Notes: generated by a model from the sequence alone, not told the origin. Positions 15,610 to 38,839 are shown, counted from the stretch's first letter. The stretch is DNA of 64,000 nucleotides from Dehalococcoides sp. JdFR-54 (GCA_002011475.1 MTNP01000008.1:4037-68036); one strand, 5' to 3'. Translations and numbers: made by a program.

Positions 15610-15645
15610 GCTAGATCAGAAGAACTCACCGAGTTTTCCCGGAAG

Positions 15646-15846
15646 ATGAGCTACAAGAAGCTGGGATTCGCCTTCTGTGCCAGGGTGACCCATGAGGCCC
15701 TGGGAGAGCTGATAGAGAGGTTCCATAAGTTTTCAGCACCGGTTTTCTCCGAAAGCCGAAGGCGTGAGATCATAGCCAAGGTGAGGTCGGTGGAGGCCGA
15801 GGCGGCGATCTCCAATTTGACCAGTTTGTTCGTAAAAGAAACCTGA
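15646..15846 (+). CDS. Small hypothetical protein (66 aa).
   Basis: ORF with cluster-like codon usage and no overlap; weak RBS. Confidence 0.25.
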   Translation: MSYKKLGFAFCARVTHEALGELIERFHKFSAPVFSESRRREIIAKVRSVEAEAAISNLTSLFVKET

Positions 15847-15864
15847 AAGGAGGCAAGGAGCGTC

Positions 15865-16296: not shown

Positions 16297-16352
16297 AAGA
16301 TGCCTCCTCCCCCTTTGTCTAGGACATAGAAGCTTGGCTGAGGGAATGCAAT

Positions 16353-17621
16353 ATGGCTAGAATCTATGAGTATCAAGGAAAGCAATTGCTCAAAGCTGTA
16401 GGGATACCTGTTCCTCAGGGGGATGTGGCTGCCACCCCTGAAGAGGTCCGCAGGATTGCAGCAAGCATAGGAAAGCCTGTGGCCATCAAGGCTCAGATAT
16501 GGGTCACGGGGCGTTTCAAGGCGGGCGGCATAAGATTCGCCAGCGACTCTGAAGAGGCGGAGAAAATCGCTCAGGAATTCCTGGGAAGTAGGATCAAGGG
16601 CTTGCTTGTAGAACAGGTGCTCGTTGAAGAGAAACTGGATGTGGATCGTGAGTTCTATGTCGGCGTAATCGTGAACGACTCCTACAAGGTTAGGGCCCCG
16701 GTCTTGGTGTTCTGTAGCGAGGGTGGGGTGGATGTGGAGGAGGTGGCCGCCCGAAATCCGGAACGGGTAGCTACCCTGCCCGTCGATTACCTCAAGGGGG
16801 TGGGGCCCTCGGAGGCGCAAGAGCTAATAGCCAAGATGTCCCTAGAAGCTGCCCTGTCCTCTGAGCTGGTCAAGGTCATCTCCGGCCTCTACCAGGCTTT
16901 CCAGAAGTACGATGCCCGGGTGGCCGAGATCAACCCCCTGGTCTTCACCAAAGACGGCCGTATCTATGCAGCGGATTGCCGGTTCACCCTCGATGATAAC
17001 GCCCTCTTCCGCCACCCCGAGTTCGGCATTAAGGTCCCTCGGGACATGGATCGAGAGCCCACCGAACTCGAGGAGATCGCCTGGCAGATAGAAGAAACCG
17101 ACTACCGGGGAACGGGCTACTTCACTCAGCTAGTCCCCGAGGTCAAAGAGGAGGGCTACGTCGGCTTCCACGGCATAGGCGGGGGGGCAGCCATGCTGGC
17201 GGCTAGCGCCCTGCTAACCCGCGGGCTGAAGATAGCTGACTATGCAGATACCAGCGGCGACCCACCCGCCAGCAAGGTGTATAAGGTGATCAAATGCATC
17301 TTGGCACTGCCCGTCGATGGCTATGTATTGATGGGCTCGGTCCTCGCCAACCAAGAACAATGGCATCATGCCCATGCCATCGTTAAAGCCTTGAGGGAGG
17401 AGCTGAAGGATAGGCCCGGATTCCCCGTGCTGCTCCTCGTCGCCGGGAACAAGGAAAACGAATCCCACCAGATCATCAGAGATGGCCTGAAGGACCTGCC
17501 CATACGCTGGGAACTCTACGGGCGGGATTACATCTACAAGACCGATTTCATAGCCGACAGGGCGGCGGACTTGGTGAAGGCCTATCTGGAAGAGAAACAC
17601 CACAAAGCAGCAGGCAGGTGA
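16353..17621 (+). CDS. Succinyl-CoA-synthetase-like acid--CoA ligase (ADP-forming), beta subunit (ATP-grasp), copy 1.
   Basis: MARIYEYQGKQLLK...GIPVP N-terminus, ATP-grasp and C-terminal CoA-ligase domain, as in SucC / MtkA / CcsA. Confidence 0.8.
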   Translation: MARIYEYQGKQLLKAVGIPVPQGDVAATPEEVRRIAASIGKPVAIKAQIWVTGRFKAGGIRFASDSEEAEKIAQEFLGSRIKGLLVEQVLVEEKLDVDREFYVGVIVNDSYKVRAPVLVFCSEGGVDVEEVAARNPERVATLPVDYLKGVGPSEAQELIAKMSLEAALSSELVKVISGLYQAFQKYDARVAEINPLVFTKDGRIYAADCRFTLDDNALFRHPEFGIKVPRDMDREPTELEEIAWQIEETDYRGTGYFTQLVPEVKEEGYVGFHGIGGGAAMLAASALLTRGLKIADYADTSGDPPASKVYKVIKCILALPVDGYVLMGSVLANQEQWHHAHAIVKALREELKDRPGFPVLLLVAGNKENESHQIIRDGLKDLPIRWELYGRDYIYKTDFIADRAADLVKAYLEEKHHKAAGR

Positions 17622-17627
17622 ATCATC

Positions 17628-17966
17628 ATGGCCCAAGGAAAACTGGAGTTCGAGGCTCGAACCTCCAAGATCACCATCGATTACGACCGGTGTGAGCCGG
17701 CCACAAAGAACACCCCCAACCCCTCCTGCGGCTTCGCCTGTATTAAGGCCGACCGCTGCTACGGCCGAAATGTCCTGAAAATAGAGGGGAATAGACCTGT
17801 GCTTGCCAGTCCGAACCCGGAGGAGATAAGGCGTTTGTGCAACGAGTGTCTGGCCTGCGAATATGACTGCTGGCTCTATGGGGCGGGCTGTATCCACATC
17901 GAGATCCCCTTCCCCGACCTCGACGCCTATAAAGAGAAGGTCAGGACAGGAAAAAGAGGTGAGTAG
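17628..17966 (+). CDS. Small Cys-rich (ferredoxin-like) protein inserted between ligase beta and alpha genes.
   Basis: 112 aa, translationally coupled on both sides, with CNECLACEYDC and upstream C..C..C pattern. Confidence 0.5.
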   Translation: MAQGKLEFEARTSKITIDYDRCEPATKNTPNPSCGFACIKADRCYGRNVLKIEGNRPVLASPNPEEIRRLCNECLACEYDCWLYGAGCIHIEIPFPDLDAYKEKVRTGKRGE

Positions 17967-17968
17967 AG

Positions 17969-18868
17969 ATGGCCATAATCGTTGACAAGACCACCAGAGT
18001 GCTCGTCCAAGGTATCACGGGGCGATTCGGCGAATTCATAACCAGGAACATGCTGGAGGTCGGTACCAATGTAGTGGCCGGGGTGACCCCAGGGCGCGGG
18101 GGTCAGGCGGTATGGGGTATCCCCGTCTACAATACCGTTAGGGAGGCGATAGAAGAGCAGGGGCCCATAGATGCCAGCGTTGTCCTGGTACCTGGCCCAG
18201 ATGCTAAAAAGGCGGTGCTGGAGGCTTTCGACCAAGGGATAAAGACCCTGCTAATGGAGGTGGAGCGGGTCCCCCTGCACGACGCCTTGGAGGTAATAGC
18301 CCACGCCAAGAAAGCCGGCGCCCGATTGATCGGCCCCGGCTCCGCAGGGCTGGTCAGCCCCGGCAAGGCCTCCCTGGGCGTCTTCGGTTCCCCCGAGGAG
18401 TTAGCCCGGGTCGCCTTCATCCCGGGCCGGGTTGGGGTTATCTCGCGAAGCGGTGGGCAAACCTCCACCCTCTCCTGGAACGTCTGCCGCGCCGGGCTGG
18501 GCATAAGCACTGCCATCAACCTGGGCTCCGAGCCGGTCTTGGGCACCACCTTCGCCGAGCTTCTATGCCTGTTTCAAGCCGACGACGAGACCGACGGGGT
18601 AGCCTATTTCGGGGAGATCGGCACAGTCCAAGAAGAGGAGGCAGCGGAGGTTATCAAGGAGGGGAAGTATACCAAGCCGTTGGTAGCCTACGTCGCCGGC
18701 AGAGCCCTCCCCTCGGGGCTGCGCTTCTCCCACGCCAGCGCCATCATTGAGGGCGGCAGGGGCACAGCGGAGAGCAAGGTCAGGGCCCTGAAGGAGGCCG
18801 GAGTATACGTAGCCGATAGGCCGGAGGACATAGGCCCTACCTTAGCGCAGATCCTCAAACGCGACTAA
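17969..18868 (+). CDS. Succinyl-CoA-synthetase-like ligase alpha subunit (CoA-binding), copy 1.
   Basis: VLVQGITGRFG CoA-binding N-terminus and phosphohistidine loop FSHASAII (SucD MGHAGAII). Confidence 0.8.
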   Translation: MAIIVDKTTRVLVQGITGRFGEFITRNMLEVGTNVVAGVTPGRGGQAVWGIPVYNTVREAIEEQGPIDASVVLVPGPDAKKAVLEAFDQGIKTLLMEVERVPLHDALEVIAHAKKAGARLIGPGSAGLVSPGKASLGVFGSPEELARVAFIPGRVGVISRSGGQTSTLSWNVCRAGLGISTAINLGSEPVLGTTFAELLCLFQADDETDGVAYFGEIGTVQEEEAAEVIKEGKYTKPLVAYVAGRALPSGLRFSHASAIIEGGRGTAESKVRALKEAGVYVADRPEDIGPTLAQILKRD

Positions 18869-18881
18869 ATGGGAGATAGCC

Positions 18882-19838
18882 ATGGGCAGTATCCTGAGAA
18901 CAATGCTCTTCATTCCCGCCAATAGCTGGCGGATGATCCTGAGAGCCCGGGATGAGATGGAGGATGCCGTTATCCTGGACCTGGAGGACGCCGTGCCCAT
19001 CGGCGAAAAGGAGACCGCCAGGGTTCTGGCCAGGGATTGCATCCCCCTGCTCAAGGAAAGAGCCATAGACGTTTTCATCCGGGTGAATTCGCTGGCCACC
19101 GGTCTAACCAGGGAAGATTTGAACTACGTAGTAGTCGAGGGAGCGGACGGCATAGTGCTCCCCAAATCGGAATCGAAGCAGGACATCCTCGCCCTAGATG
19201 AGTTCTTGCAGGATGAAGAGAGGAAAAAGGGCTTGGAACCCAACAGCGTCGCTATTATGCCTTTGGTGGAGACTCCCAGGGGGGTTCTGAATGTGAGGGA
19301 CATCGTCTCCGCCAGCCCAAGGGTGATTGCCGTGGGCTTTGGCGCTGGGGATTTCCTCAGGGAGCTGGGGGAGGGGTTCGCCATCACCAGACTAACCCCG
19401 GAGGAGTACTTCCCTATGATTCTCTATGCCCGCTCCAGCATCTCCTTGGCCGCCAGCGCCGCCGGCATTCTGCCTATAGATACCCCCTTCTTCGGGCTGC
19501 TTACCGATACCGAGGGGCTAATCGCTGAGTCCGAGAAGGCCAAGCTTCTGGGATTCAAGGGGAAGATGCTCATTCACCCCCGCCACATCAACCCCGTGAA
19601 TGAGATCTTCTCGCCTTCCGAGGCAGACATCGACTTCGCTAGGCAAATGGTGCAGGCCTACAAGGAAGCCGAGGCCAGGGGGCTGGGGGCAGCCTCCTTC
19701 GGCGGCAGGATGATCGACTATGCCATGCATACCATGGGAATGGACCTCTTGGCCAAAGCCGAAGCCATAGCCGAAAAGAGCCAACGGAGGCTCCGAGTGT
19801 CATCCTCTGCGGGGGCAGCAACTGAGGAGACTTCTTAG
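18882..19838 (+). CDS. CitE-like (HpcH/HpaI family) acyl-CoA lyase, such as malyl-/beta-methylmalyl-/citramalyl-/citryl-CoA lyase.
   Basis: MLFIPAN...AVILDLEDAV N-terminal signature of the citrate lyase beta / malyl-CoA lyase family. Confidence 0.8.
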   Translation: MGSILRTMLFIPANSWRMILRARDEMEDAVILDLEDAVPIGEKETARVLARDCIPLLKERAIDVFIRVNSLATGLTREDLNYVVVEGADGIVLPKSESKQDILALDEFLQDEERKKGLEPNSVAIMPLVETPRGVLNVRDIVSASPRVIAVGFGAGDFLRELGEGFAITRLTPEEYFPMILYARSSISLAASAAGILPIDTPFFGLLTDTEGLIAESEKAKLLGFKGKMLIHPRHINPVNEIFSPSEADIDFARQMVQAYKEAEARGLGAASFGGRMIDYAMHTMGMDLLAKAEAIAEKSQRRLRVSSSAGAATEETS

Positions 19839-27063: not shown

Positions 27064-28245
27064 ATGGCTAGCGAAAAGGAAGTCGTGGCCGAGGTTTCCG
27101 AAGGCGAAATCTCCCCCCGCACCCTCGATGAGTGGAAGGCGCGGCTGGGGATGTCACTGCGTATCTCTGCCATCTTCAATATGTATGTCTCCAGGGAGGC
27201 GATACGGAACTACGTCAACGGCATCGGGGACATTAACCCTCTCTACCGCGATCCCGACTACGCAGCCAAGACCCGCTACGGCAGGCTCATTGCCCCGCCC
27301 AATTGGCTCTACAGCGTCTTCCCCACCTGGGTGCTCCAGGGTCTGCCGGGGGTGCACGCCTTCCACTCCGGCAACGACTGGCGGTTCTACCTGCCCATCT
27401 ACATGGGCGACACCATCACCCCGGAGTGCATCTTCACCGGCTTCGAGGTGAAAGGCAGCCAGTTTGCTGGCCGCATGGTCATGGAATACCAGAGGGCCAA
27501 CTTCCGCAATCAGCGGGGGGAACTGGTAGCCAGCACCGACCTATGGCTAGTCCGCACCGAGCGGAGGGCCGCCCGAAAGGCGGGCAAATACCACGATCTG
27601 AAGCTCCCCCACCCCTGGACGCCCGAGGAACTGGAGAAGGTAGACCAGGAGATAATGGCCGAGGTAGTTCGAGGGGGCGAGGTGCGCTACTGGGAGGACA
27701 CCCAGGTAGGGGAGGAACTCCAGCCAGTGGTCAAGGGCCCCCTGGGCCTGACCGACATCATCGCCTACTGCGTGGGGGCAGCGCCCATCCAGATCGCGGC
27801 TCACCACGCCCAACTAAACCTGTACCGCGCCCACCCCGCCTGGGGCTTTCGCGACCCGGAGACCAACGCCTGGGAGCCTATCTACGCCGTCCACTACCTA
27901 AAGCCGGCGGCCAAGGCCGCCGGGGTCAATTACTGCTACGACGTGGGCGCTCAACGCCAGGGCTGGCTCATAGGCTTCCTGTGCAACTGGATCGGAGACG
28001 AGGGCTGGATCAAGAAAAATTACGCCGAGTATCGAAGGTTCGTTTACCTCTCCGACGTGGTGCGGTTTACGGGCAAGGTAACGGATAAATACATTGATGA
28101 GAACGGCGAGCACTGCGTCGATATCGAGACCCATGCCATAAACCAGCGAGGGGAAGACACCATGCCCGGCCACTCCACGGTCATCCTGCCCTCCCGGGAG
28201 AAGGGCACCTGGCCGGTAGCCAGGCGGATCAGGACGGACTACTAA
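27064..28245 (+). CDS. Double hot-dog MaoC-like acyl-CoA hydratase/dehydratase (mesaconyl-/itaconyl-CoA hydratase-like).
   Basis: 393 aa with two hot-dog halves; strong SD AAGGAGGTG. Confidence 0.65.
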   Translation: MASEKEVVAEVSEGEISPRTLDEWKARLGMSLRISAIFNMYVSREAIRNYVNGIGDINPLYRDPDYAAKTRYGRLIAPPNWLYSVFPTWVLQGLPGVHAFHSGNDWRFYLPIYMGDTITPECIFTGFEVKGSQFAGRMVMEYQRANFRNQRGELVASTDLWLVRTERRAARKAGKYHDLKLPHPWTPEELEKVDQEIMAEVVRGGEVRYWEDTQVGEELQPVVKGPLGLTDIIAYCVGAAPIQIAAHHAQLNLYRAHPAWGFRDPETNAWEPIYAVHYLKPAAKAAGVNYCYDVGAQRQGWLIGFLCNWIGDEGWIKKNYAEYRRFVYLSDVVRFTGKVTDKYIDENGEHCVDIETHAINQRGEDTMPGHSTVILPSREKGTWPVARRIRTDY

Positions 28246-28251
28246 CGCCCG

Positions 28252-28575
28252 CTATCTTATCGGCTTCCTCACGAAGACCTGCACACCCACCGAGAAAGGT
28301 ATGCTCTCCCGCAGGTCCTTGCTCAGGGTTATGGACTTCTTCTTATCACCGACCTCCTCCAGCCTCTCCACCTTGAACCTGAGCGTCCTGGGGCCGATCA
28401 CCTCCACCAAGCCCCCCACCTCAACCCCCAGCTCCGCCCGGGATTCAGCATCCAAACGGCACACCCCTTTCCCGAGGTCGGCATCCACATCCTCGATGAG
28501 GGTCAGGATTATCTCTTTGCCGTAGCTAGGCGCGCGATATTTGCTGCCGATCACCTGCTCTGAAGTTTCCATCAT
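28252..28575 (-). CDS. Small hypothetical protein with two AbrB/VAT-N-like cradle-loop barrel half-motifs.
   Basis: 107 aa; CRLDAESRAELGVEVGGLVEV and ITLSKDLRESIPFSVGVQVFV resemble swapped-hairpin barrel motifs; co-directional with tfrAB. Confidence 0.3.
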   Translation of the reverse strand: MMETSEQVIGSKYRAPSYGKEIILTLIEDVDADLGKGVCRLDAESRAELGVEVGGLVEVIGPRTLRFKVERLEEVGDKKKSITLSKDLRESIPFSVGVQVFVRKPIR

Positions 28576-30137
28576 ACCTCCAGTGCTCGGGCCACCAACT
28601 CGATGAGGTCCACAATCTCCATATCCTCCCTGCCCAGGGCCTGGGCCGCCTGCTTCAGCCTGGCTGAGTCGGCAGCGCTGGCGGTTACTATGGTCTCGGC
28701 GCCGCCCTCGGCGAGCTGCCTCAACCTGGCCTGGGCTATCTTGGAGTTAACCTCCTCGGAGGCCCCCAGGCCCCCGTCGCCCATGGTATTAGCCCCCCAA
28801 TAGTATTTTGGCTCCACCAAGCTGATGCCAGGGATACTAGCCAGAATCTCCCTAGGCTCCTCGACCATACCCAAGAACCTGGACAGAAAAGCTGGGTCGT
28901 GGAAGACCACCTTCCTGTTGCCCATGGCTTTCAGGGAGATCGCCTTCGACCTGATCTTCTCCAGAATCACCTCCAGCACAGTCCTGACCTGGATATTGGA
29001 GTCGCCGGCATATTTGGGGTAGAGCTCCCTAAAGGTGTAGGCGCAGGCAGGGCTAGGGGTTATTATCTCCTCCACCCCTGTCTCCTTAAGCAGCTTCTGC
29101 ACCTTTGCTGCCTTCTCTCTAAACTCCTTCTGGAAGCCGTAGAAGTAGAGGGGGGCGCCGCAGCACTGCTCCTCCTCGTAGAGATAGGAGAGACTACTCC
29201 CCGCCTTCTGGAGCAATTCCGCCGCCCGGGCCAGAACCGCCCTCCCCCCCTCCGTGGCCGAATACTCGCACGAGGCGAAGAACAGCGTCTTGCCGGACTT
29301 AGGGATTCCCAGGTCGGTAGCCCAGGAAGCCCGCTCCTTCCCACACACCCCGTAGAGGCTATCCGTTTCCAAGATGTTGCGGCGAATCTCCCTCACCTCT
29401 TCTGGAAGGACATCCTCCTCAACCGCCCGCTGTCTAGCCAGGATCATGCTCTCCGTTATCTCTATATCCTTGGGGCACGAGGTGGTGCAGGCCCGGCACA
29501 GGGTACAGTTATACAGCCCCATATCCACGGCCTGAGCCACCCTATCATACTCCTCCAAGGGATTGAACATGGCCCGTATGATGTTCGCCAAATACATGGG
29601 CCCGACGAACCTCGCCGGGCTCTCCAACCAAGGGGGGCAGATGGAATTGCAGCCGTGGCAGTCGGCGCAGATAGTCAAAGCCCTAGAGACGCCTATCGCC
29701 TCGGGCTTGGCCGGTATAAAGCCTATGGGTTTGCCCTCTCGCCCGTATTTGATCTTGCGAAACATCTCGGCCGTCTGCTGGGTTCTATCGATGACGAGAT
29801 CCCTGATCACCGGGTATCCCTTTAGAGGCTCCAGAACGTCTCCATCCTGGGCCAGCGCCCGACAGGCAAGGGCCGGAACGCCGTTTACCGAGATGGTGCA
29901 GGCACCGCAACCAGCCTCGCGGCATCCCCTCCGGAAGGCGATGTTGGCCCGGCTGTGCTTGTTTATGTAGGTTAGGGCCATGATGGCAGTAAGGCTGGGC
30001 AGCCACTCGGCTTCATAGGTTTCGTACCTGGGTTCCGCGTCTGTCTCCGGATTGAACCGGTATACGGTCAGTTTTATAGTCTTGGTCTCGGCGGTCGCGC
30101 TCACAATGGTCACCTCGTCTCCGCTTCTAGTCTGCAA
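28572..30137 (-). CDS. Fumarate reductase/succinate dehydrogenase Fe-S subunit fused to an HdrD-like CCG domain (TfrB / type-E SdhB-like).
   Basis: N-terminal 2Fe-2S ferredoxin (CREAGCGACTISVNG), 4Fe-4S motifs (CADCHGCNSICP, CTLCRACTTSCP), then two CCG-type Cys-rich repeats (QCCGAPLY; SPACAYTF). Confidence 0.78.
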   Translation of the reverse strand: MQTRSGDEVTIVSATAETKTIKLTVYRFNPETDAEPRYETYEAEWLPSLTAIMALTYINKHSRANIAFRRGCREAGCGACTISVNGVPALACRALAQDGDVLEPLKGYPVIRDLVIDRTQQTAEMFRKIKYGREGKPIGFIPAKPEAIGVSRALTICADCHGCNSICPPWLESPARFVGPMYLANIIRAMFNPLEEYDRVAQAVDMGLYNCTLCRACTTSCPKDIEITESMILARQRAVEEDVLPEEVREIRRNILETDSLYGVCGKERASWATDLGIPKSGKTLFFASCEYSATEGGRAVLARAAELLQKAGSSLSYLYEEEQCCGAPLYFYGFQKEFREKAAKVQKLLKETGVEEIITPSPACAYTFRELYPKYAGDSNIQVRTVLEVILEKIRSKAISLKAMGNRKVVFHDPAFLSRFLGMVEEPREILASIPGISLVEPKYYWGANTMGDGGLGASEEVNSKIAQARLRQLAEGGAETIVTASAADSARLKQAAQALGREDMEIVDLIELVARALEV

Positions 30138-31887
30138 GGCCGGGTAAACCGGCCTCCTCCGGCGTGAGCAGGGTCACCCGAACCGGCCTGGCAGTGGTCT
30201 TGATCATCTTGGAGAGGCTGGAAGCCGAGGGGTCATAGGTAACCTCGATGTTCTTCAGCCAGTTCTTGTTGTCAGTATCGGGGTAGTCTTCTCGGTAGTG
30301 GTTGGCCCGGCTCTCCGTGCGCAGCAAAGCTGAGAGCGCCATCGCCTGACTCATGAACAGCCTGGGATAAAGATCCAGGGCCTCCAGCCACTCGTAGTTC
30401 CAGGTCTTGGAGCCGTCGCTGACCCTTACTTTAGGTAGCTCCTGGCTCCACATAGCGTCCATCTCCGCCACGGCCTGCCCCAGCCCCTTCCCATCCCTGA
30501 TAACGCTGACATACTTCCACATCAGATCCAGGTGTCTATCCCTGAGCTCCAGCGGGCTGATGCCGTCCCCCCTCTCCAGAGGCGCAAAGACCCGCTGCAT
30601 CTCCTCTTTGACCTGGTCCTGAGGAACCTTGGCCACCATGCCTGCCTTCTTCAGCCTGGTGGCCCGGATGGAGGCGGCCTGCCCCGCCCTGATGCCGGTC
30701 ACCATGAGATCGGGAAGAGAGTTGGAGCCGAGCCTGTTGCCACCGTGAATCCCCCCGGCGGTCTCACCGACGGCGTATAAACCGGGGATGTCCTCAGACT
30801 CAAACATAACATTTACCACCACCCCGCCGTCAGTGTAGTGGGCTGCTGGCGTTATCTCAAAGGGCTCGGTCCTGATATCTATGCCTACGCTCTTGATGTT
30901 GGCAAACATGGAGGGCAGTCTCTTCTCGATGACCTCTGGTGGAATGTGAGTAAGGCTCAGGTAAACACCACCCCTCTCCGTAGCGTTGCCCGCCATATAT
31001 TCCCTATAGATACTTCTGGAGATGAAGTCCCTAGTGGCCACCTCCAACCACTCAGGGGAATACTTGATCATGAACCGCTCGCCGTGCTTGTTGTAGAGCC
31101 TCCCCCCTTCAGACCTGAGGGCCTCACTACCGGCCATGCCTCTCAGGCCCGGGGGCCACCAGATGGCGGTGGGATGCCACTGGAGCATCTCCAGGTCCAC
31201 CACCCTCGCCCCCGCCAGCATGGCCATGTAGTAACCGTCGCCCACATTCCAGTCTCCGGTATAGGCCAGGGGAAAGACCCTTCCCATGCCACCCGTCGCC
31301 AGGACTACTGCCTTGGCCTTGAAAACGATGAACTTGCCGTCTCGAACGCTGACAGCGGTGGCTCCCGCCACCTCGCCCCGCGCATCGATCAGGAGCTTGG
31401 TCACATTTACCTCATCGAGCACCCTGACCGGGGATCTCACCAGCCTGGCCTTGAGCCCCTTTATCATCTCCGAGCCGCTCCTATCCCCGCTGCTCACCGA
31501 GCGGGCATAGGTATGGCCTCCGAATTGGCGCAGGTAGGGTCCCCCATCCTCGTCCCTATCCCAAATGCACCCCCAATCCTCGAGGGCGAAAAGGGCCATG
31601 GGAGCTTCCTTCACAAAAACCTCGACCAGAGCCTGGTCGCTGAGGAAAGAGCCGCCTAGCACTGTGTCGCAGAAATGCTGCCACCACGAGTCCCTGGGAT
31701 CCCTCACGTAAAACCCGGCTATACCACCCAGCGCTGCCGGGGTACACCCGCTGTGCCCGATGAGCCCCTTGACCGCCAGAGTCACCTCCACCCCGTGCTT
31801 GGCGGCCTCGATGGCCGCCACTATACCGGCACCACCCCCACCTACCACCAATACATCAGTCTCTATTACCTCGTCCACTTCCGGCAT
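30127..31887 (-). CDS. Fumarate reductase/succinate dehydrogenase flavoprotein subunit (TfrA/SdhA-like).
   Basis: DVLVVGGGGAGIVAA FAD fold plus FrdA/SdhA catalytic and capping-domain motifs; 586 aa. Confidence 0.85.
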   Translation of the reverse strand: MPEVDEVIETDVLVVGGGGAGIVAAIEAAKHGVEVTLAVKGLIGHSGCTPAALGGIAGFYVRDPRDSWWQHFCDTVLGGSFLSDQALVEVFVKEAPMALFALEDWGCIWDRDEDGGPYLRQFGGHTYARSVSSGDRSGSEMIKGLKARLVRSPVRVLDEVNVTKLLIDARGEVAGATAVSVRDGKFIVFKAKAVVLATGGMGRVFPLAYTGDWNVGDGYYMAMLAGARVVDLEMLQWHPTAIWWPPGLRGMAGSEALRSEGGRLYNKHGERFMIKYSPEWLEVATRDFISRSIYREYMAGNATERGGVYLSLTHIPPEVIEKRLPSMFANIKSVGIDIRTEPFEITPAAHYTDGGVVVNVMFESEDIPGLYAVGETAGGIHGGNRLGSNSLPDLMVTGIRAGQAASIRATRLKKAGMVAKVPQDQVKEEMQRVFAPLERGDGISPLELRDRHLDLMWKYVSVIRDGKGLGQAVAEMDAMWSQELPKVRVSDGSKTWNYEWLEALDLYPRLFMSQAMALSALLRTESRANHYREDYPDTDNKNWLKNIEVTYDPSASSLSKMIKTTARPVRVTLLTPEEAGLPGLAD

Positions 31888-31995
31888 GCCTTCACCTCGC
31901 TTTCGCCTCTGATTTGTCTACCCGTATGGATTGCCCCTCAACCCAGCGGAGACAAATATATTCGCCCCAGCCTAGCTTGTCAAGGCCAACTGCTG

Positions 31996-32024
31996 TTGAC
32001 ATCGAGCACCCTCTTTGGCAAAAT
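31996..32024 (+). promoter_or_regulatory. Candidate sigma-70 promoter TTGACA-N17-CAAAAT in the divergent tfrA/glmS1 intergenic region.
   Basis: Perfect -35 at 31996-32001; weak -10 at 32019-32024. Confidence 0.3.
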
Positions 32025-32087
32025 GGGGACGACACCTAGAACGCCCTTCGTTGCACGTTTCGATGCGAAGTGGGATTGCCTGGGAAG

Positions 32088-32543
32088 ATGGGGCAGCCAC
32101 AGATCACCATTATAACCGGGGTGTTACGAGATATCCACCACCTTGGCATAAAGGTAGTGGGATATGCTCTCCAGGAAGCTGGCTTCCGACCGGTCTTTAT
32201 CGGGGCCAGATTGGAGCAGGAAGAGTTCATCCAGGCCGCTATCGAGACCGATGCCAAGGCCATCTTTATGTCCTCCTCCAACGGCCACGCCGAGCTTGAC
32301 GCCGTCGATATGCGGGAGAAGTGCACAGAAGTAGGCCTGGGTAATATCCTGCTCTACCTGGGCGGCAATCTGGTCATCGCCGCTCAGGAACAGGACTGGA
32401 CGAGCATTGAAGGCCGATTCAAGGAGATGGGTTACGACCGGGTATATCCACCCGGGGTGAGCCCGGCACAGGTGATCCAGGACTTGAAGGCAGACCTAGC
32501 CCAACGATATGGAATATCCGAAGTGGCTAGGGACGAGCGGTGA
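32088..32543 (+). CDS. Glutamate mutase S-like B12-binding subunit, divergent copy 1. A GTG at 32070 is the alternative start.
   Basis: ITIITGVLRDIHHLG (DxHxxG) and C-terminal GYDRVYPPGVSPAQVIQDLK closely parallel GlmS (…DCHAVGN…GFDRVYPPGTSP…). Confidence 0.75.
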   Translation: MGQPQITIITGVLRDIHHLGIKVVGYALQEAGFRPVFIGARLEQEEFIQAAIETDAKAIFMSSSNGHAELDAVDMREKCTEVGLGNILLYLGGNLVIAAQEQDWTSIEGRFKEMGYDRVYPPGVSPAQVIQDLKADLAQRYGISEVARDER

Positions 32544-34000
32544 AGCTAGAGAACAGGCGCTGGACAGATGAGGAATTCGGGCAAGCCTTCCGGGAGGTAA
32601 TGTCCCTCTATCCCACGGGGCGGGAGGTGGATCTGGATGAGGCGGTGGAATACCTCAGGGCGCTGCCCCCGGAAAAGAGCGTCCCAGCAGCCTTTGACAG
32701 GGCGAAGCGGGATGGGCTGCTCCTGCTGAACCCCAGGGGAGGGGTGGCCACCCTGGAGGCCATGACCCAGCTTCTGCTCTGCCTCCAGAATGAGGGCGGC
32801 GCCGATATCCTGCCCGTAGAGCCGGACAGCTATTCGAGGCGCAATATGTTCCAGGAGGCAGCGGCTGGCCTTGAGGAGAGCCAGAGGCAGGGACGCTCCA
32901 TGCTTAACGGCTTTCCCCTGCCCATCCATGGCGTGGCCACCTGCCGGCGCCTCACCGAGTCGGTGCAGAGGCCCCTGGTCTGTCGCTCAGCGGCGCCCCG
33001 GACCCAATTCGTGAACACCATCGCCTTCGTCAGTGGCATAACCGAGGCAATTGGCAGCGCCACCGGTCTCGCCCTGTGCATGGAGTATGGCCTCGACCTG
33101 GCCCAGGCCATCCAGGATCAGCAGTACACAGCTCGGCTGGTGGGGTGGTTTCAGGAGCGGGGGGTTGCCCTGGGTTTAGATGTCAACAACACTGTAGCCG
33201 CCGGAACCATCGCCGAGCCGAGCCTTTCCATAGCCTACGGGGTCATTGATAGCCTCATCGCCGCCGAACAGGGGGCTCGGTATCAGTCCATCTCCTACCA
33301 GCCCAATCACCACTTCGTCCAGGACCTAGCTGGAATGCGGGCTCAGATGAAGCTGGCCCAGCACTATTTCACCAAGTTCGGATACGACTGGTCTGGGCTG
33401 AGCCAGGCTGTCCACCAGTGGAACGGGCCCTTCCCCCGCGACCCCGCCCGCGCCTATGCCATCATCGTCCTGTCCACAGCCATCGCCTACCTGGGCAAGG
33501 CGAGGCGTATCATGGTGAAGAGCTGCGAGGAGGGATTAGGAGTGCCCACGCCCCAGGCCAACGCCGCCGGCGTGCGCGCTACCCGCCAGGTCGTGGATAT
33601 GCTGCGGGGCCAGGAATTCCCAGAAAGCCCCCAACTCCGAGAGGAGCAGGCGATAATCGAGACCGAGGGCAGGCTGCTCATAGACAAGGTGCTGGAGGTG
33701 GGGGACGGCGATATCGCCGTAGGAGCGGTGCGGGCCCACGAGGCCGGGCTCATCGAGTTCCCCTTCAGCATTAACAAGGCTAACAAGGGACAGATGCTCC
33801 TGGCCCGGGACGCCACCGGGGCCGTCCGATTCCTAGACCCCGGCCACCTCCCCTTCCCCAAGGAGATTCGACAGTTCCACCAGGAGAAACTGCGGGAGAG
33901 ACAGCGCTCCGAGGGCCTAGAACCGCTGGAGATGCTCGTTCGGGATCTGCGGGAGGTGCGGGCTCCGTTCCCTGAGGCCAAAACAAGACGGTTGGTGTAA
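32540..34000 (+). CDS. Glutamate mutase E-like catalytic subunit, copy 1 (methylaspartate-mutase E-chain family).
   Basis: 486 aa, co-linear with Clostridium GlmE (RRWTDEEF, WPTGREVDL, GRSMLNGFP, AEQGARY, AAGVRATRQ). GTG start overlaps the copy-1 S-subunit stop (GTGA). Confidence 0.85.
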   Translation: MKLENRRWTDEEFGQAFREVMSLYPTGREVDLDEAVEYLRALPPEKSVPAAFDRAKRDGLLLLNPRGGVATLEAMTQLLLCLQNEGGADILPVEPDSYSRRNMFQEAAAGLEESQRQGRSMLNGFPLPIHGVATCRRLTESVQRPLVCRSAAPRTQFVNTIAFVSGITEAIGSATGLALCMEYGLDLAQAIQDQQYTARLVGWFQERGVALGLDVNNTVAAGTIAEPSLSIAYGVIDSLIAAEQGARYQSISYQPNHHFVQDLAGMRAQMKLAQHYFTKFGYDWSGLSQAVHQWNGPFPRDPARAYAIIVLSTAIAYLGKARRIMVKSCEEGLGVPTPQANAAGVRATRQVVDMLRGQEFPESPQLREEQAIIETEGRLLIDKVLEVGDGDIAVGAVRAHEAGLIEFPFSINKANKGQMLLARDATGAVRFLDPGHLPFPKEIRQFHQEKLRERQRSEGLEPLEMLVRDLREVRAPFPEAKTRRLV

Positions 34001-34004
34001 CAAG

Positions 34005-34418
34005 GTGATGGGCAAGACCGTAGTGATTGGGACCATAGGCAGTGACTGCCACGTGGTGGGCAACTGGATCATGGCTCGCAGCTTGGAGCAGGCGGGGTTT
34101 AAAGTGGTTCAATTGGGAGCCTGCGTCTCCCAGGAGGAGTTTATCGATGCCGCCGTGGAGGCCAAGGCCGATGCCATCTTCGTCTCTTCCCTCTATGGAA
34201 TGGGCCTGTTCGACTCTGAGGGGCTCAGGGAGAAGTGCATCGAGGCGGGGTTAAAGGACATCCTTCTCTACATCGGCGGCTACCTAGTGACGACCAGACA
34301 GGAATGGCCGGACATTGAGAAACAGTATAAGGACATCGGTTTCGATCGAGTGTATCCCCCCGAGACCAAGCCAGCGGTGGCTATCGCCGACCTGAAGCGG
34401 GATCTGGGATTATCCTAG
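34005..34418 (+). CDS. glmS: Glutamate mutase S subunit (B12-binding), canonical copy 2.
   Basis: MMGKTVVIGTIGSDCHVVGN...SSLYGMG...GFDRVYPPETKP is near-identical in pattern to the GlmS/MutS sigma subunit. Confidence 0.88.
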   Translation: MMGKTVVIGTIGSDCHVVGNWIMARSLEQAGFKVVQLGACVSQEEFIDAAVEAKADAIFVSSLYGMGLFDSEGLREKCIEAGLKDILLYIGGYLVTTRQEWPDIEKQYKDIGFDRVYPPETKPAVAIADLKRDLGLS

Positions 34419-34447
34419 CCCAGAGACCAAGAGGACAGGCAGAGCTT

Positions 34448-35881
34448 ATGGAACTGAGCAGCAGAAGATGGGATGAAGAACAGCTCCTCGAAGTGCGCAA
34501 GGAGGTCCTAGCCCAGTGGCCCACGGGCCGGGAGGTGGACCTGGATGAGGCCGTGGAATACCAGAAGAGCCTGCCCCAGGAGAAGGTCTGGGCTCGAAAA
34601 CTGACCCAGGGCTACCAGCAGGGCACGGTATTCACCATGCCCCAGGTGGGGCGGGCCACCGTGGAAGAGACGGCAACCCATATGAAGTATGTGGAAGAGG
34701 AAGCCGGGGCCGATGCCTGGCTCATCTTCATGGATACCTACACCCGAAAAGGTAGGTTTAAGGACGCCCAGCAGGGCATTGACGAGAGCATCAGGCAGGG
34801 CAGGTCCATGCTAAATGGATATCCCGCGGTTTGCCACGGTGTCAAGGGTCTGCGGCGGATTCGAGAGGTGAGCCAGGTTCCCTTCTATATCACCAATGTG
34901 GATGAAGACCCCAGGCTGGCCACGGAGATCGGGTTTGCCGGGGGCGCCACAGGATATCTGTCCTATGACCTCCACGATTTGCTCCAGCATTCCAAGAATT
35001 ACCCCCTGGATATGAGAATCCAGAACAACCAGTACGGCAACCGGCTTATCTCCTATTACGAGGAGCGGGGAGCCCCCATAGTGGCCTGGTCCTCCGGCCA
35101 CTTCAACGGCTGGGAGCCCCCTGGGCTGAAGATCCCCATAGTTATCCTGACCGCCTTGCTCACCGCGGAACAAGGGGTTAAGCATATCGGGCTTACCCTT
35201 GGCCTATGTGTACACCTGGTGCAGGACGTAGCGGCGCTGAGAGTGCTCCATGAGCTGACCAAGGAATACCTGGCTCGATTCGGCTACTCTGATGTAGCCG
35301 TATATCTCTGGACCTACCCCTTTCTGGGGGTCTGGCCCAGGGATGTGGACCGAACCGCAGCCCTCATCGCCTGGCAGGCAGCTATCAGCGTCCTTTCCGG
35401 GGTTGGCTGTATGATAGTCAAATCCCTGGACGAGGCCTACGTGGTGCCCGAAAAGGAGGGGAATGCCCATGCCGTAAAGATGGCCAAACAGATCATCGAC
35501 GTGGTCGGCAAGCAAAGGCTGGGGGAGAGCCAGGAGCTGAAGCTAGAACAGGAGATGCTCCGACGGGAGGTAAGGGCCAGCTTAGATAAAACCATCGAGC
35601 TGGGAGAGGGAGACGTGGCCATCGGGATGATGAGGGCAGTAGAGCGGGGGGTGCTGGACGGGGTCTTCTCCCCCTGGCTTCGGTGCCACAACAAGGTCCT
35701 CCCGGTGAGGGATGCCACCGGCGCCATCCGCTATCTGGACTATGGCAACGTGCCCCTGCCGCCGGAGGTGGTCGAGTACAATAACCAGAAGATCGCCGAA
35801 AGGGAGAAGCTGGAGGGCGTTAAGGCAGATATCGAGATGGTGATCCAGGACATCAGCTTCCTATCCCGGGCCCTATTCTAG
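34448..35881 (+). CDS. glmE: Glutamate mutase E subunit, copy 2.
   Basis: 477 aa co-linear with GlmE (RRWDEEQLLEVRKEV, WPTGREVDLDEAVEY, GRSMLNGYP, AEQGVKHI). Confidence 0.85.
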   Translation: MELSSRRWDEEQLLEVRKEVLAQWPTGREVDLDEAVEYQKSLPQEKVWARKLTQGYQQGTVFTMPQVGRATVEETATHMKYVEEEAGADAWLIFMDTYTRKGRFKDAQQGIDESIRQGRSMLNGYPAVCHGVKGLRRIREVSQVPFYITNVDEDPRLATEIGFAGGATGYLSYDLHDLLQHSKNYPLDMRIQNNQYGNRLISYYEERGAPIVAWSSGHFNGWEPPGLKIPIVILTALLTAEQGVKHIGLTLGLCVHLVQDVAALRVLHELTKEYLARFGYSDVAVYLWTYPFLGVWPRDVDRTAALIAWQAAISVLSGVGCMIVKSLDEAYVVPEKEGNAHAVKMAKQIIDVVGKQRLGESQELKLEQEMLRREVRASLDKTIELGEGDVAIGMMRAVERGVLDGVFSPWLRCHNKVLPVRDATGAIRYLDYGNVPLPPEVVEYNNQKIAEREKLEGVKADIEMVIQDISFLSRALF

Positions 35882-35911: not shown

Positions 35912-37291
35912 ATGGACAGCTCCTTTGAATTCGCCGAAAACATCGTGAATATCAGATACAGCGATCTGCCGGCAGAAGTTGTGGAAATCACCAAGAGGTG
36001 CATTCTGGATACTCTAGGCGTTATGCTGGCGGCGAGCAGCCTGGCGCCGGACGTAAAGGAAATTGTAGAGATGGTCAAGGAGGGCGGAGGCAAGGAGGAG
36101 AGCACCATCATCGCCTTCGGGGGGAGGGTGACGGCATGGATGGCCGCCTTCGCTAATGGAACCATGGGCCATCCCCTAGATTATGATGATACCCATGACC
36201 CCGCCATTGTCCATCCTACAGCACACACCATACCCGCCGCCTTCGCTATAGCGGAGCGAATTGGCGGAGTCAATGGCGAGGACTTTATCACCGCCGTAGC
36301 CTTAGCCAATGATATGGTATGTAGATTGGGGCTGGCCTTGAATAAAGGACTGTTCGGCTATGGCTGGCTAAGGCCAGTGGTCCTGGGGTTTTTCAGCTCT
36401 ACGGCGGCCGCCGGTAAGCTGCTGGGGCTAAACCGGGATCAGATGGTAAACGCCTTCGGTCTCGTCCTCAACCAAGTAGCCGGCAGCCTGGAGCCCGTCC
36501 ATACCCCCGGGTCTGCCTTCCGGGCGATACGGGATGCTTTCTCAGCCAAGGCGGGCGTTCTCTCCGCCCTCATGGCAGAGCGGGGTGTACCCGGCGACAG
36601 GAACAGCCTGCAGGGGAAATATGGCCTGTTCAACCTATATTTCCAGGGCGACTATGACCCCACCCGACTCACCGCCGAGCTGGGCAAAAGGTTTGAAGGG
36701 GTCAACGTCAGCTTTAAGCCTTGGCCTGCCTGTCGGAATGCGCACCCCTTCATAACCGCGACCCTGGATATCGTAAAGGGAAATGGTATCAAACCGGAGG
36801 ACACCGAAGCTATCCTGCTGGCGGGGGGCAGCTTTGCCCAATCCCTGTGTGAGCCTCTGGAGGAGAGACGGAGGCCCAAGGCAAGCATCGACGCCAAGGT
36901 CAGTTTGCCCTTTATCATCGGGGCAGCCCTGGCCCGGGGAAAGGTTGTCCTCTCGGACTTCACCCCCGCGGGCCTCAATGACCCCGCGGCTCTGGAAATG
37001 GCCCAAAAGGTGACCTTCAGGTTCGAGGAGCGCTTCAACACAAGTGGCATCGAGCCCGCCTTGGTCGAAATAAAGACCAAGGACGGCGGGACCTACTCAA
37101 AGGAAGTGGAGTTTGCCTACGGCCACCCTCAGAACCCCATGACCCTGGATGACCTGATAGCTAAGTTCAGGGATTGTGCCTCCTATTCGGTGAGGCCCCT
37201 GGCCAACGATGCCGTTGACCAAGTAATCCAGATGGTCACCAACTTGGAGGGCGTAGAGGACGTAGGTGCCGTTGTCCGCTTGCTGGGTTAG
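35912..37291 (+). CDS. MmgE/PrpD-family protein (2-methylcitrate dehydratase / cis-aconitate decarboxylase / IDS-epimerase superfamily).
   Basis: N-terminal FAENIVNIRYSDLPAEVVEITKRCILDTLGVMLAASS signature; 459 aa. Confidence 0.8.
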   Translation: MDSSFEFAENIVNIRYSDLPAEVVEITKRCILDTLGVMLAASSLAPDVKEIVEMVKEGGGKEESTIIAFGGRVTAWMAAFANGTMGHPLDYDDTHDPAIVHPTAHTIPAAFAIAERIGGVNGEDFITAVALANDMVCRLGLALNKGLFGYGWLRPVVLGFFSSTAAAGKLLGLNRDQMVNAFGLVLNQVAGSLEPVHTPGSAFRAIRDAFSAKAGVLSALMAERGVPGDRNSLQGKYGLFNLYFQGDYDPTRLTAELGKRFEGVNVSFKPWPACRNAHPFITATLDIVKGNGIKPEDTEAILLAGGSFAQSLCEPLEERRRPKASIDAKVSLPFIIGAALARGKVVLSDFTPAGLNDPAALEMAQKVTFRFEERFNTSGIEPALVEIKTKDGGTYSKEVEFAYGHPQNPMTLDDLIAKFRDCASYSVRPLANDAVDQVIQMVTNLEGVEDVGAVVRLLG

Positions 37292-37432: not shown

Positions 37433-38839
37433 ATGGGAGTCATCTTACTTATAGACTTTGGCAGCACTTATACCAAAATAAGGGCGGTAGACCTGGAAAA
37501 GGAAGAGGTGGTAGGGAGCTGCCAGGCGCCCAGCACGGTCGACACAGATATGACCATTGGGCTACAGGCGGCCTTCGATGCTCTCCTTGCTCAGACGGGC
37601 GTCGGCAACACCGATATAGAGGGCAAGCTTGCTTGTAGCAGTGCTGCCGGCGGCTTGCGCCTGGTGGCCAGTGGCCTGGTCCCCCGGCTGACCACTGAGG
37701 CGGCCAAGAGAGCTGCCCTCGGCGCCGGCGCCAAGGTCATAGGGGTCTATTCCTACCAGCTCACCCCCAAGGAGATAGCCGAGTTGGAGCAGAAGCGCCC
37801 CGACCTGGTGCTGCTGGTGGGTGGCACCGACGGCGGGAATACAGAGGTCATCCTCCACAATGCCAGGATGCTGGCCAACTCCGATCTGGTCTGCCCCATA
37901 GTGGTTGCCGGCAACAAAGTGGCCGCTGAGGAGGTCGAGCACATCCTCCACACCGCTGGCAAGTATGTGGCGGTGGCCGCTAATGTGATGCCAGAGGTCA
38001 GTCAGCTCAACGTAGAGCCGACTCGCGCCGTCATCAGAGAGATGTTTATGAGGCGCATCACCCATGGGAAGGGCCTGAACAAAGCCGAGAGACTCGTGGG
38101 CAGCATTATTATGCCCACTCCCATGGCTGTGCTCCGCGGCGCCGCCTTGCTGGCTCAAGGCACCCCAGAAGAGGCGGGGCTGGGCGACCTCATCGTTGTC
38201 GATGTTGGCGGCGCCACCACCGATGTGGATTCCCTGACGGAAGGCAACCCCACCCAGCCCGGCGTAGTGGCAAAGGGCTTGCCCGAACCCTACGCCAAGC
38301 GGACGGTGGAGGGTGACCTGGGAATTCGATACAGCGCACCCCATATCCTGGAAATCGCCGGCGAGAAGCGCCTGCGAGAGAACCTGATGGCAAGGGACGA
38401 GGGGCTCGCTGGCGACCTGGACCTAGGCGCCAAGCTGTCCTACTTGTCCGACCATATCGATTTTGTCCCCCAGACCCAGCATGACTCCCACCTCGATGTC
38501 GCCCTGGCCCGCAGCTCGGTGGAGATCGCCATGCAAAGACACGCCGGAGTGATAGAGACCTGCTATCTGCCATCGGGCACTGTCTACCTCCAGCATGGCA
38601 AGGACCTGACCCAGGTTAAGCGTGTCATCGGGACCGGCGGCATATTTAGCTACGGGCAGCACCCCCGCTGGATACTGGAGGGAACGCTATACAGCCAGCG
38701 GGAACCCCTGTCCCTCAGGCCCAAGGCGCCAGAATTCTTCATAGATGAACGATACCTGCTCTATGCCATAGGCTTGCTGGCCGAGATCGCCCCTGAGAAA
38801 GCCCTCCGGATAATGAAAAAACACCTGAGAAAGGTATAA
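37433..38839 (+). CDS. glmL: GlmL/MutL-type glutamate-mutase-associated chaperone (ASKHA-fold ATPase).
   Basis: VILLIDFGSTYTKIRAVD N-terminus and ~468 aa, as in component L of clostridial glm operons. Confidence 0.65.
   Translation: MGVILLIDFGSTYTKIRAVDLEKEEVVGSCQAPSTVDTDMTIGLQAAFDALLAQTGVGNTDIEGKLACSSAAGGLRLVASGLVPRLTTEAAKRAALGAGAKVIGVYSYQLTPKEIAELEQKRPDLVLLVGGTDGGNTEVILHNARMLANSDLVCPIVVAGNKVAAEEVEHILHTAGKYVAVAANVMPEVSQLNVEPTRAVIREMFMRRITHGKGLNKAERLVGSIIMPTPMAVLRGAALLAQGTPEEAGLGDLIVVDVGGATTDVDSLTEGNPTQPGVVAKGLPEPYAKRTVEGDLGIRYSAPHILEIAGEKRLRENLMARDEGLAGDLDLGAKLSYLSDHIDFVPQTQHDSHLDVALARSSVEIAMQRHAGVIETCYLPSGTVYLQHGKDLTQVKRVIGTGGIFSYGQHPRWILEGTLYSQREPLSLRPKAPEFFIDERYLLYAIGLLAEIAPEKALRIMKKHLRKV

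Follow-up and report, generated by a model that had tools for sequence, protein, structure and literature searches.

The closest described relatives of the enzyme reported here are the thiol:fumarate reductases (TfrAB; EC 1.3.4.1; NF004900, NF004898) of Methanothermobacter and other archaea, which are soluble and have two subunits. Homologues of archaeal tfrAB are also known from bacterial reductive tricarboxylic acid (rTCA) cycle clusters, where aclAB, korABCD and flx-hdr genes accompany them and where they are interpreted as CO2-fixation fumarate reductases (PMC6315080). A second described system, the methylsuccinate/itaconate cluster of Pseudomonas and Cupriavidus, includes an MmgE/PrpD protein that a 2025 study identified as a free-acid isomerase interconverting (S)- and (R)-methylsuccinate, encoded alongside a CoA-transferase and a citramalyl-CoA lyase (PMC12290011). 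According to the same study, methylsuccinate arises in anoxic habitats by itaconate reduction, apparently the main way in which itaconate is used without oxygen; no anaerobic methylsuccinate route is named there, and itaconate-fermenting bacteria are not yet known (PMC12290011). Here we describe a tfrAB-like locus in a 64,000-nucleotide stretch of DNA from Dehalococcoides sp. JdFR-54 (GCA_002011475.1 MTNP01000008.1:4037-68036), referred to as the window. Positions 28252-31887 of the window hold three minus-strand open reading frames (ORFs) that are translationally coupled and divergent from a plus-strand B12-mutase operon.

From sequence and gene context we propose that the triad is an oxidoreductase for methylsuccinate/mesaconate and belongs to a free-acid route, not described before, that leads to citramalyl-CoA; we put this a little short of an even chance. 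A broader reading, which we hold to be less likely, is that this anchor-less complex, which lacks an Hdr-type thiol site, is the free-acid methylsuccinate (or 2-alkylsuccinate) dehydrogenase or mesaconate reductase of an undescribed anaerobic C5-branched dicarboxylate pathway that would be horizontally shared among Dehalococcoidia, Syntrophaceae-like bacteria and Thermoproteota archaea. The occurrence of TfrAB in a bacterium was already reported for the rTCA clusters (PMC6315080); the features new here are a subfamily defined by a small barrel protein and, within it, a clade that has lost all cysteines from its second CCG domain. We found no description in the literature of the barrel-bearing subfamily, of this clade or of its operon. 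The three genes, and the promoter candidates next to them, are as follows.

30127-31887, minus strand: TfrA-like flavoprotein, 586 aa, FAD_binding_2 and Succ_DH_flav_C domains
28572-30113, minus strand: TfrB-like SdhB::CCG fusion, 513 aa counted from the GTG at 30113
28252-28575, minus strand: barrel protein, 107 aa, CDC48_N / double-psi beta-barrel
31955-31983, minus strand: sigma-70-like promoter candidate facing tfrA, TTGACA-17-TATATT, 11 of 12 matches (consensus match only)
31996-32024, plus strand: divergent promoter candidate facing the B12-mutase operon, TTGACA-17-CAAAAT with TG (consensus match only)

The flavoprotein matches FAD_binding_2 (E = 1.9e-80) and Succ_DH_flav_C (E = 1.2e-26) in Pfam, and its best NCBIfam model is TfrA (521.1 bits, below the cut-off of 718 bits). 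The Fe-S subunit contains Fer2_3, Fer4_8 and CCG domains with the motif QCCGAPLY, and its best NCBIfam model is TfrB (255.3 bits, below the cut-off of 385 bits). The predicted tfrB start is the GTG at 30113, 13 nt past the tfrA stop codon; the mechanical ORF (28572-30137) extends to a TTG at 30137, and the 513-aa protein counted from the GTG is identical to P0001 in the public protein collection. The ATG of the barrel gene overlaps the TGA of tfrB. A GAGGTG ribosome-binding site lies ahead of the tfrA ATG, and the promoter candidate facing tfrA sits ~68 nt upstream of that ATG, within a 182-bp intergenic gap between tfrA and the mutase operon that also holds the opposed candidate. No hydrophobic segment of transmembrane strength was found in TfrA, TfrB or the barrel protein, and no membrane-anchor gene adjoins the triad in the window or in the related loci that we read. 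The original prediction had described a flavoprotein with an Fe-S/CCG fusion of TfrAB architecture, no membrane anchor, a co-transcribed 107-aa barrel protein downstream and transcription divergent from a mutase operon, and all of this layout is borne out by the domain and family matches, the overlapping and closely spaced start codons and the opposed promoter candidates. At its other end, the barrel gene and a convergent MaoC-type hydratase gene end 6 bp apart (28245-28252), with no terminator-like hairpin between them in a simple terminator scan. Rfam and tRNA scans of the window found no RNA genes.

The SdhB-like N-terminal half of the Fe-S subunit carries a 2Fe-2S motif (Cys64/69/72/84), a first 4Fe-4S motif (Cys149/152/155/159) and a second four-Cys motif (Cys203/206/209/213). 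The C-terminal half consists of two CCG domains, the first of which (CCG1) retains Cys282/317/318/357 with Ser354 in the fifth place, while the second (CCG2) contains no cysteine at all, leaving four of the ten CCG cysteines overall. This state is shared by a clade of 12 proteins, made up of the window protein and 11 close relatives at 57-75% identity. In all 12, no CCG2 cysteine is left and the fifth cysteine of CCG1 is missing too, and the CCG1 motif C...CCG...C is invariant among them. At the CCG2 cysteine positions all 12 members have Ala/Pro/Ser, Ala/Val-Asn, Ser and Asp, with Asn442, Asp446 and Asp482 as invariant polar substitutes. Both CCG motifs (C..CC..CxxC, twice) keep their cysteines in ~70 other full-length TfrB-like proteins. 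A four-Cys state like that of CCG1 is common in stand-alone CCG proteins; it is the complete loss from CCG2 that is unusual. Within the clade CCG2 is as conserved as CCG1 (63% vs 66% mean pairwise identity), which suggests a changed function rather than decay. In the HdrB-type site, two five-Cys clusters hold the two disulfide halves. As six of the ten CCG cysteines are gone clade-wide, Hdr/Tfr-type thiol:disulfide chemistry appears unlikely in the clade, and with it the thiol donor that had been suggested for this enzyme; the CCG domain that had been recognised is present as the CCG1 motif, but its second motif is devoid of cysteines.

An exhaustive profile-free search for TfrB returned 243 proteins at E <= 1e-30. 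About 70 full-length fused representatives are 24-36% identical to the window protein, and the only nearer relatives are P0020 (44%) and the clade representatives P0003 (74%) and P0014, a fragment. In a neighbour-joining tree of the Fe-S subunit the window clade is monophyletic and nested within the fused TfrB-like proteins, consistent with a TfrAB lineage; its sister is P0020 (Geothermarchaeales), followed outward by P0024, whose two CCG motifs are intact. P0020 (loci L010/L011) has the reciprocal loss, lacking the CCG1 cysteines (Lys, Ser-Cys and Val stand there) and keeping all of those in CCG2. A genome scan with a clade-only alignment recovered one species-representative genome and nine metagenome loci, several of them duplicates; a diverse alignment of 46 sequences had no stretch conserved enough for such a scan. 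The source labels of the clade members are Dehalococcoidia (the 90% cluster of the window protein), Chloroflexota, a Syntrophaceae metagenome-assembled genome (MAG) and a Nitrososphaeria MAG, and these bin labels need caution.

The flavoprotein was aligned to E. coli SdhA, M. smegmatis Sdh1 and 120 homologues. The dicarboxylate site is kept (His238, Ser254, Glu255, Arg258, Arg286, His350 and Arg385), with Ser254 replacing the Thr of E. coli SdhA, so that, as judged from the alignment, the protein carries a complete fumarate/succinate-type site. The position of the covalent-FAD histidine is occupied by Cys48 in an 'SGCT' motif, which is also found in Methanopyrus TfrA (P0273, P0279) and in most homologues among those listed; since it is general in archaeal TfrA, it is a mark of the family and not an oddity of this protein. 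Specific to the clade is the loop GMAGSE, which has AGSE where others have LVTE. Ala252-Gly253, just before the catalytic Ser/Thr-Glu, stand where nearly all homologues have Leu-Val, and neither Ala252 nor Gly253 occurs in any of 111 other TfrA homologues. Position 353 is likewise distinctive, being Asp in the clade and Met or Asn in other homologues, and the alignment contains no clade-specific extra basic residue able to bind a third carboxylate. TfrA has no Tat signal, its Rossmann fold starting at residue 11. We rejected L-aspartate oxidase as an identity for the flavoprotein, as its scores fall below those of the TfrA/Sdh/Frd models and both an Fe-S partner and an Sdh-type C-terminal domain are present.

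The 107-aa protein matches CDC48_N (Pfam) and solved double-psi beta-barrel (DPBB) domains at E = 5e-13. An AlphaFold2 model built from an alignment of 41 sequences, used because a single-sequence model was unusable (pLDDT 52), reached a pLDDT of 70.5 and a TM score of 0.83 to the DPBB domains of VAT/Cdc48. The barrel gene directly follows tfrB in loci L001-L011, L014-L015 and L018-L023 and at the P0344 locus. It is present in every clade locus that reaches beyond tfrB, and sister lineages with a TfrB of no more than 32-40% identity have it too; it lies immediately downstream of tfrB at the loci of both P0020 and P0024. The barrel gene therefore predates the cysteine loss and is a constant partner of this TfrAB branch. 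A barrel profile finds ~60 proteins, nearly all of 100-110 aa (a few are shorter fragments and one has 121 aa), and two of the most distant are likewise encoded after TfrA-TfrB. The barrel protein is a conserved third component of this whole barrel-bearing subfamily, in bacterial and archaeal MAGs, and could be a redox-partner adaptor or an assembly factor.

The gene neighbourhoods of related loci point to the pathway in which the triad may act. In L004, L008 and L009 a single operon reads FumA-FumB-(DUF1847)-TfrA-TfrB-barrel-PrpD-like-SucC-like-small ORF-SucD-like-CitE-like. L006 and L020 show the first part of this operon; these two loci and L004 have a sigma-54 activator upstream. In L001 and L018 the order is TfrA, TfrB, barrel, PrpD-like and lyase, with a family-III CoA-transferase instead of the ligase; the PrpD-like proteins of L018 and L004 share 66% identity, though the TfrB of L018 is only ~35% identical to that of the window. 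One of the distant barrel loci has the order SucD-like, lyase, FumA, FumB, TfrA, TfrB, barrel. Beyond the barrel subfamily, L012/L013 encode three RraA-like proteins, TfrA, TfrB, a 388-aa CxxCxxCC protein, two MmgE/PrpD proteins and aldehyde:ferredoxin oxidoreductases; among TfrB-like proteins that retain both CCG motifs, the TfrB of these loci, P0021, is the closest. This cluster suggests that the association of TfrAB-like and PrpD-like proteins recurs outside the subfamily. The window has orthologues of the hydratase, the ligase trio and the lyase at 14018-19838, 9-14 kb from the triad, and a paralogue of the PrpD-like protein.

14018-14947 (alpha) and 14980-15609 (beta), plus strand: class-I fumarase-like hydratase, 61-76% identical to the operon hydratase, candidate mesaconase
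15568-15732, plus strand: remnant of a DUF1847 (Cys-rich) gene, which is intact between hydratase and tfrA in L006, L008 and L020
16353-17621, plus strand: SucC-like protein, ATP-grasp_2 and Citrate_bind domains
17628-17966, plus strand: conserved 112-aa ORF between SucC-like and SucD-like
17969-18868, plus strand: SucD-like protein, ligase orthologue
18882-19838, plus strand: CitE/HpcH-family CoA-ester lyase, 71-73% identical to the last gene of the operon, candidate citramalyl-CoA lyase
35912-37291, plus strand: MmgE/PrpD-family protein, 32-35% identical paralogue of the operon PrpD-like protein, nearest solved relative IDS epimerase

Both hydratase subunits fall below the NCBIfam fumarate-hydratase equivalog cut-offs. 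The ligase genes (16353-18868) are 66-79% identical to the operon ligase, and their product is a candidate hydroxy-dicarboxylate:CoA ligase. A small ORF of ~100-130 aa lies between the SucC-like and SucD-like genes in every ligase copy (L002, L004, L008, L009 and the window; 55-74% identity); it has no Pfam match and may encode a third subunit or a detached domain. The lyase belongs to the CitE/Ccl/CLYBL family, with CitE as its best NCBIfam match. The PrpD-like proteins score 166 and 133 bits against IDS epimerase and only ~30 bits against 2-methylcitrate dehydratase, and cis-aconitate decarboxylase is also among their closest solved relatives. The intact DUF1847 protein has ~243 aa (L006 7471-8202; L008 2372-3100), and a remnant is present in L009 as well; it may serve the system as an accessory redox or metal protein, and apart from this optional Cys-rich protein the operon contains no gene for a redox partner.

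We therefore consider a pathway of five steps acting largely on free acids. (R)- and (S)-methylsuccinate would be interconverted by the PrpD-like epimerase, methylsuccinate and mesaconate by the TfrAB-like enzyme, and mesaconate and (S)-citramalate by the fumarase-like hydratase. Citramalate would then be activated to citramalyl-CoA by the SucCD-like ligase or the family-III CoA-transferase, and the CitE-like lyase would cleave it to pyruvate and acetyl-CoA. This free-acid route leaves no gene of the operon without a role, and we rate it the best explanation. There is published precedent: class-I fumarases act as mesaconases (PMC4682846), and the characterised MmgE/PrpD members all use 2-substituted succinates, including cis-aconitate and 2-methylcitrate (PMC12290011). 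The enzyme itself, a member of the TfrAB lineage, would be an oxidoreductase that is soluble or peripheral, has no anchor and includes a small double-psi barrel as third component; it would act on a 2-substituted succinate/fumarate pair, for which methylsuccinate/mesaconate is our best guess. Electrons would pass between FAD, the 2Fe-2S cluster, the two 4Fe-4S clusters, a residual metal site in CCG1 and a redox partner. Thiols like coenzyme M (CoM) and coenzyme B (CoB) would not be the donor, the Hdr/Tfr-type site being gone. The substrates named in the original prediction fare unevenly: mesaconate and methylsuccinate gain support from the conserved neighbours, the clade-specific loop and the precedent of the isomerase cluster (PMC12290011), and itaconate gains no specific support.

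The direction in which the enzyme would work can be argued both ways. The logic of the operon, with its epimerase, CoA-activating enzyme, lyase and inducible activator, favours catabolic methylsuccinate oxidation. The non-covalent-FAD-type site and a strictly anaerobic host would favour mesaconate reduction; by analogy with the FrdA His44 variants of E. coli, a FAD site without histidine suits reduction, and the glycyl-radical enzyme, the 2-hydroxyacyl-CoA dehydratase genes and the B12 mutases of the window point to strict anaerobiosis.

Several observations weigh against a methylsuccinate/mesaconate enzyme. All of the fumarate/succinate-binding residues are intact, so fumarate may still be a substrate. 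Oxidation of a succinate-type substrate at ~0 mV is hard for a strict anaerobe to achieve without a membrane anchor. The clade-specific loop is not uniform, as position 252 is Met or Leu in two clade members and position 253 is Val in two, and contact of these residues (252 being the Leu position) with the substrate is assumed by comparison with quinol:fumarate reductase (QFR) and succinate:quinone reductase (SQR) structures. Comparison of the lyase with PDB structures gives equal scores to CitE, malyl-CoA lyase and CLYBL and so does not discriminate among C4, C5 and C6 substrates. The operon-type PrpD-like gene is absent from the window, where the paralogue at 35912-37291 is the sole PrpD-like gene. 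In a plasmid search the PrpD-like proteins were at most ~41% identical to any plasmid-borne family member, with uninformative contexts, which makes the isomerase function a family-level precedent and not a case of orthology. Finally, the neighbours of the triad in the window include SucCD, a methylmalonyl-CoA-mutase (MCM)-like pair and a ScpC-type succinyl-CoA:acetate CoA-transferase (which passes its equivalog cut-off), a classic succinate/propionate context; SucCD, the MCM-like pair, two CoA-transferases and the MaoC-type hydratase gene separate the triad from the genes at 14018-19838.

This context suits a plain soluble fumarate reductase, which would turn the product of the fumarase into succinate and onward into succinyl-CoA and methylmalonyl-CoA, with ferredoxin or another protein rather than a thiol as donor, in the service of propionate fermentation or a reductive TCA branch. 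We regard this as less likely than the main reading, but as a serious rival. The binding and catalytic residues are fully kept, the TfrA-type FAD site without histidine is typical of reductases (compare the FrdA His44 mutants of E. coli), fumarase genes lie immediately upstream of tfrA in L004, L006, L008 and L009, and SucCD, the MCM-like mutase and the ScpC-type CoA-transferase are nearby in the window. The same role has been given to bacterial tfrAB in rTCA clusters. However, a fumarate reductase leaves no job for the PrpD-like gene, for a second SucCD-like ligase that is separate from the true SucCD, or for the CitE-like lyase; the AGSE loop is found in none of the 111 other TfrA homologues; and none of the C4-enzyme equivalog cut-offs of NCBIfam is reached by the hydratase, by the ligase or by either Tfr subunit.

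A further reading has the enzyme act on a different substituted succinate, either tricarballylate/aconitate on a route to citrate, citryl-CoA and a citryl-CoA lyase, or longer 2-alkylsuccinates that arise when hydrocarbons are activated anaerobically. In its favour, the Citrate_bind domain of ATP-citrate lyase is matched by the SucC-like subunit, CitE is the top NCBIfam match of the lyase, the preference of characterised MmgE/PrpD members for 2-substituted succinates (PMC12290011) applies here equally, the smaller residues at 252/253 could accommodate more than a methyl group, and one clade member comes from a Syntrophaceae MAG. We nevertheless consider it improbable. The PrpD-like protein is so far from the dehydratase PrpD (30 bits) that it is unlikely to replace an aconitase, no clade-specific basic residue is available for a third carboxylate (Asp353 stands in place of Met/Asn), and the fumarase-like hydratase has no obvious part in a citrate route. 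A source of alkylsuccinates in the window was considered and rejected, as its glycyl-radical enzyme scores 455 bits with the dehydratase/lyase class and 233-276 bits with alkylsuccinate/benzylsuccinate synthases.

A quinone-linked peripheral enzyme of the type-E SQR or Campylobacter Mfr kind, in which the complex would be docked on the membrane through its CCG half, which would react with menaquinone, and would need no integral anchor, is more doubtful still. CCG subunits fill such a docking and quinone role in type-E SQR and Mfr, and Mfr is reported to reduce mesaconate besides fumarate. The second 4Fe-4S cluster with its fourth Cys is also common to the type-E enzymes. Against these likenesses, no amphipathic or hydrophobic segment was detected, TfrA begins its Rossmann fold at residue 11 without a Tat signal, the CCG half is fused and not a separate SdhE, there is no SdhF-like gene nearby, and the cluster ligands of CCG2 are lost.

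Least probable is a genuine thiol:fumarate reductase that would use a bacterial low-molecular-weight thiol or a protein dithiol at CCG1, since, although TfrA and TfrB are the top NCBIfam models and the CCG1 motif C...CCG...C is retained throughout the clade, one of the two five-Cys sites is gone and the other is short of one ligand, both subunits are under the TfrA/TfrB equivalog cut-offs, and the host lineages are not known to produce CoM or CoB.

The mutase operon (32070-35881 and 37433-38839) encodes two glutamate-mutase-type S/E pairs and GlmL, and both E subunits are barely above the cut-off of the methylaspartate-mutase model (415 and 397 vs 390 bits). Neither E subunit has Glu171, and E2, like its homologue in L007 (10857-14333), also lacks Arg66 and Arg149 of the arginine claw; Lys326 and Glu330 are retained, with Arg at position 326 in the L007 homologue. 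In the glutamate mutase structure Glu171 binds the amino group of glutamate, and Lys326 and Glu330 bind the adenosyl group. With these residues missing, the neighbouring operon named in the original prediction does not encode a canonical glutamate mutase; judging by their sequences, the enzymes seem to be B12 mutases whose substrate is not glutamate, and as non-canonical members of the glutamate mutase family they may feed the pathway in the window. No match to the methylaspartate ammonia-lyase (MAAL) family was found among the window ORFs scanned, and canonical glutamate mutase with MAAL was rejected as a source of mesaconate on these grounds (Glu171 missing from both E subunits, two of three arginines missing from one, no MAAL match).

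The glycyl-radical enzyme (6076-9542) belongs to the dehydratase/lyase class, with diol and glycerol dehydratases as its best solved relatives. Its gene is broken into two ORFs by a single frameshift in a GAGAGAGAGA run near 6425-6440, which is either an assembly error or a pseudogene; a radical-SAM activase gene (8628-9542) follows it and a TRAP transporter (2885-6002) precedes it. A 2-hydroxyglutaryl-CoA-dehydratase-type subunit pair (HGD-D) followed by two family-III CoA-transferases occupies 56231-62608, and no match to an activator ATPase was found near the pair among the ORFs scanned, which did not include some of the smaller ones. The gene at the end of the window (63342-64000) resembles, at 31% identity, the AcnX gene beside the L004 operon. 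A divergent pair at 10504-12899 comprises a family-III CoA-transferase, whose best models are the succinate-glutarate and succinyl-CoA:mesaconate transferases (both below cut-off), and an HMG-CoA-lyase-family gene, which passes its subfamily cut-off. Together with a LarA-like gene (48984-50435) and an IlvD-like gene (46344-48005), this pair makes the window read as a large island for branched and hydroxylated dicarboxylic acids.

If the free-acid proposal is true, the operon would give abundant uncultured sediment lineages an anaerobic route for methylsuccinate and mesaconate. There are also consequences for annotation. JGI/IMG labels some homologues 'fumarate reductase (CoM/CoB)', and NCBI labels proteins of the window's 90% cluster '4Fe-4S dicluster domain-containing protein' and 'hypothetical protein'; a census of CCG cysteines tells which TfrB-like proteins can and which cannot hold the thiol site. 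The reciprocal loss of CCG1 and CCG2 cysteines with the domains conserved amounts to a natural experiment on the function of CCG domains without clusters, and the barrel protein, so far unstudied, may be a third subunit in a complex-II-like enzyme.

Compared with archaeal TfrAB, the window enzyme is likewise soluble in its predicted form, has 'SGCT' in its flavoprotein instead of the covalent-FAD histidine, and joins a CCG half to an SdhB-like half that bears a 2Fe-2S motif and two four-Cys 4Fe-4S motifs. It differs in that both subunits are under the curated cut-offs (521.1 vs 718 and 255.3 vs 385 bits), with 42% identity to Methanopyrus TfrA and 27% identity to a TfrB of a Hodarchaeales MAG among archaeal proteins so named. 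The clade lacks six of the ten cysteines that make up two complete CCG motifs, has a barrel gene, and has AGSE in place of LVTE; its setting is an organic-acid catabolic operon, whereas that of TfrAB is biosynthesis. The rTCA-cluster tfrAB of tubeworm symbionts and Thioflavicoccus (PMC6315080) are also homologues of archaeal TfrAB without a membrane anchor, but the partners of the window type are a hydratase, a PrpD-like protein, a ligase and a lyase, with no Hdr/Flx genes nearby.

The Pseudomonas/Cupriavidus methylsuccinate/itaconate cluster (PMC12290011) shares with the operon an MmgE/PrpD gene, a CoA-activating enzyme (a family-III CoA-transferase, as in L001/L018) and a CitE/HpcH lyase, and would share its end via citramalyl-CoA to pyruvate and acetyl-CoA. 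That route is aerobic and runs on CoA esters, with an acyl-CoA dehydrogenase and an itaconyl/mesaconyl-CoA hydratase (PMC12290011), whereas the dehydrogenase and hydratase here are of free-acid type (TfrAB-like and class-I fumarase-like) and the PrpD-like proteins are not close orthologues (<= ~41%). In type-E SQR (SdhABEF) and Campylobacter Mfr, as in the window enzyme, a CCG protein is the electron outlet of an SdhAB-like core and a fourth Cys turns the 3Fe-4S site into a second 4Fe-4S site, but here the CCG protein is fused and half of it is cysteine-free, and there is no SdhF, Tat signal or covalent-FAD histidine. From classical QFR and SQR (types A-D) the window enzyme differs in its lack of an integral anchor and in having Cys48 in place of the FAD-binding histidine.

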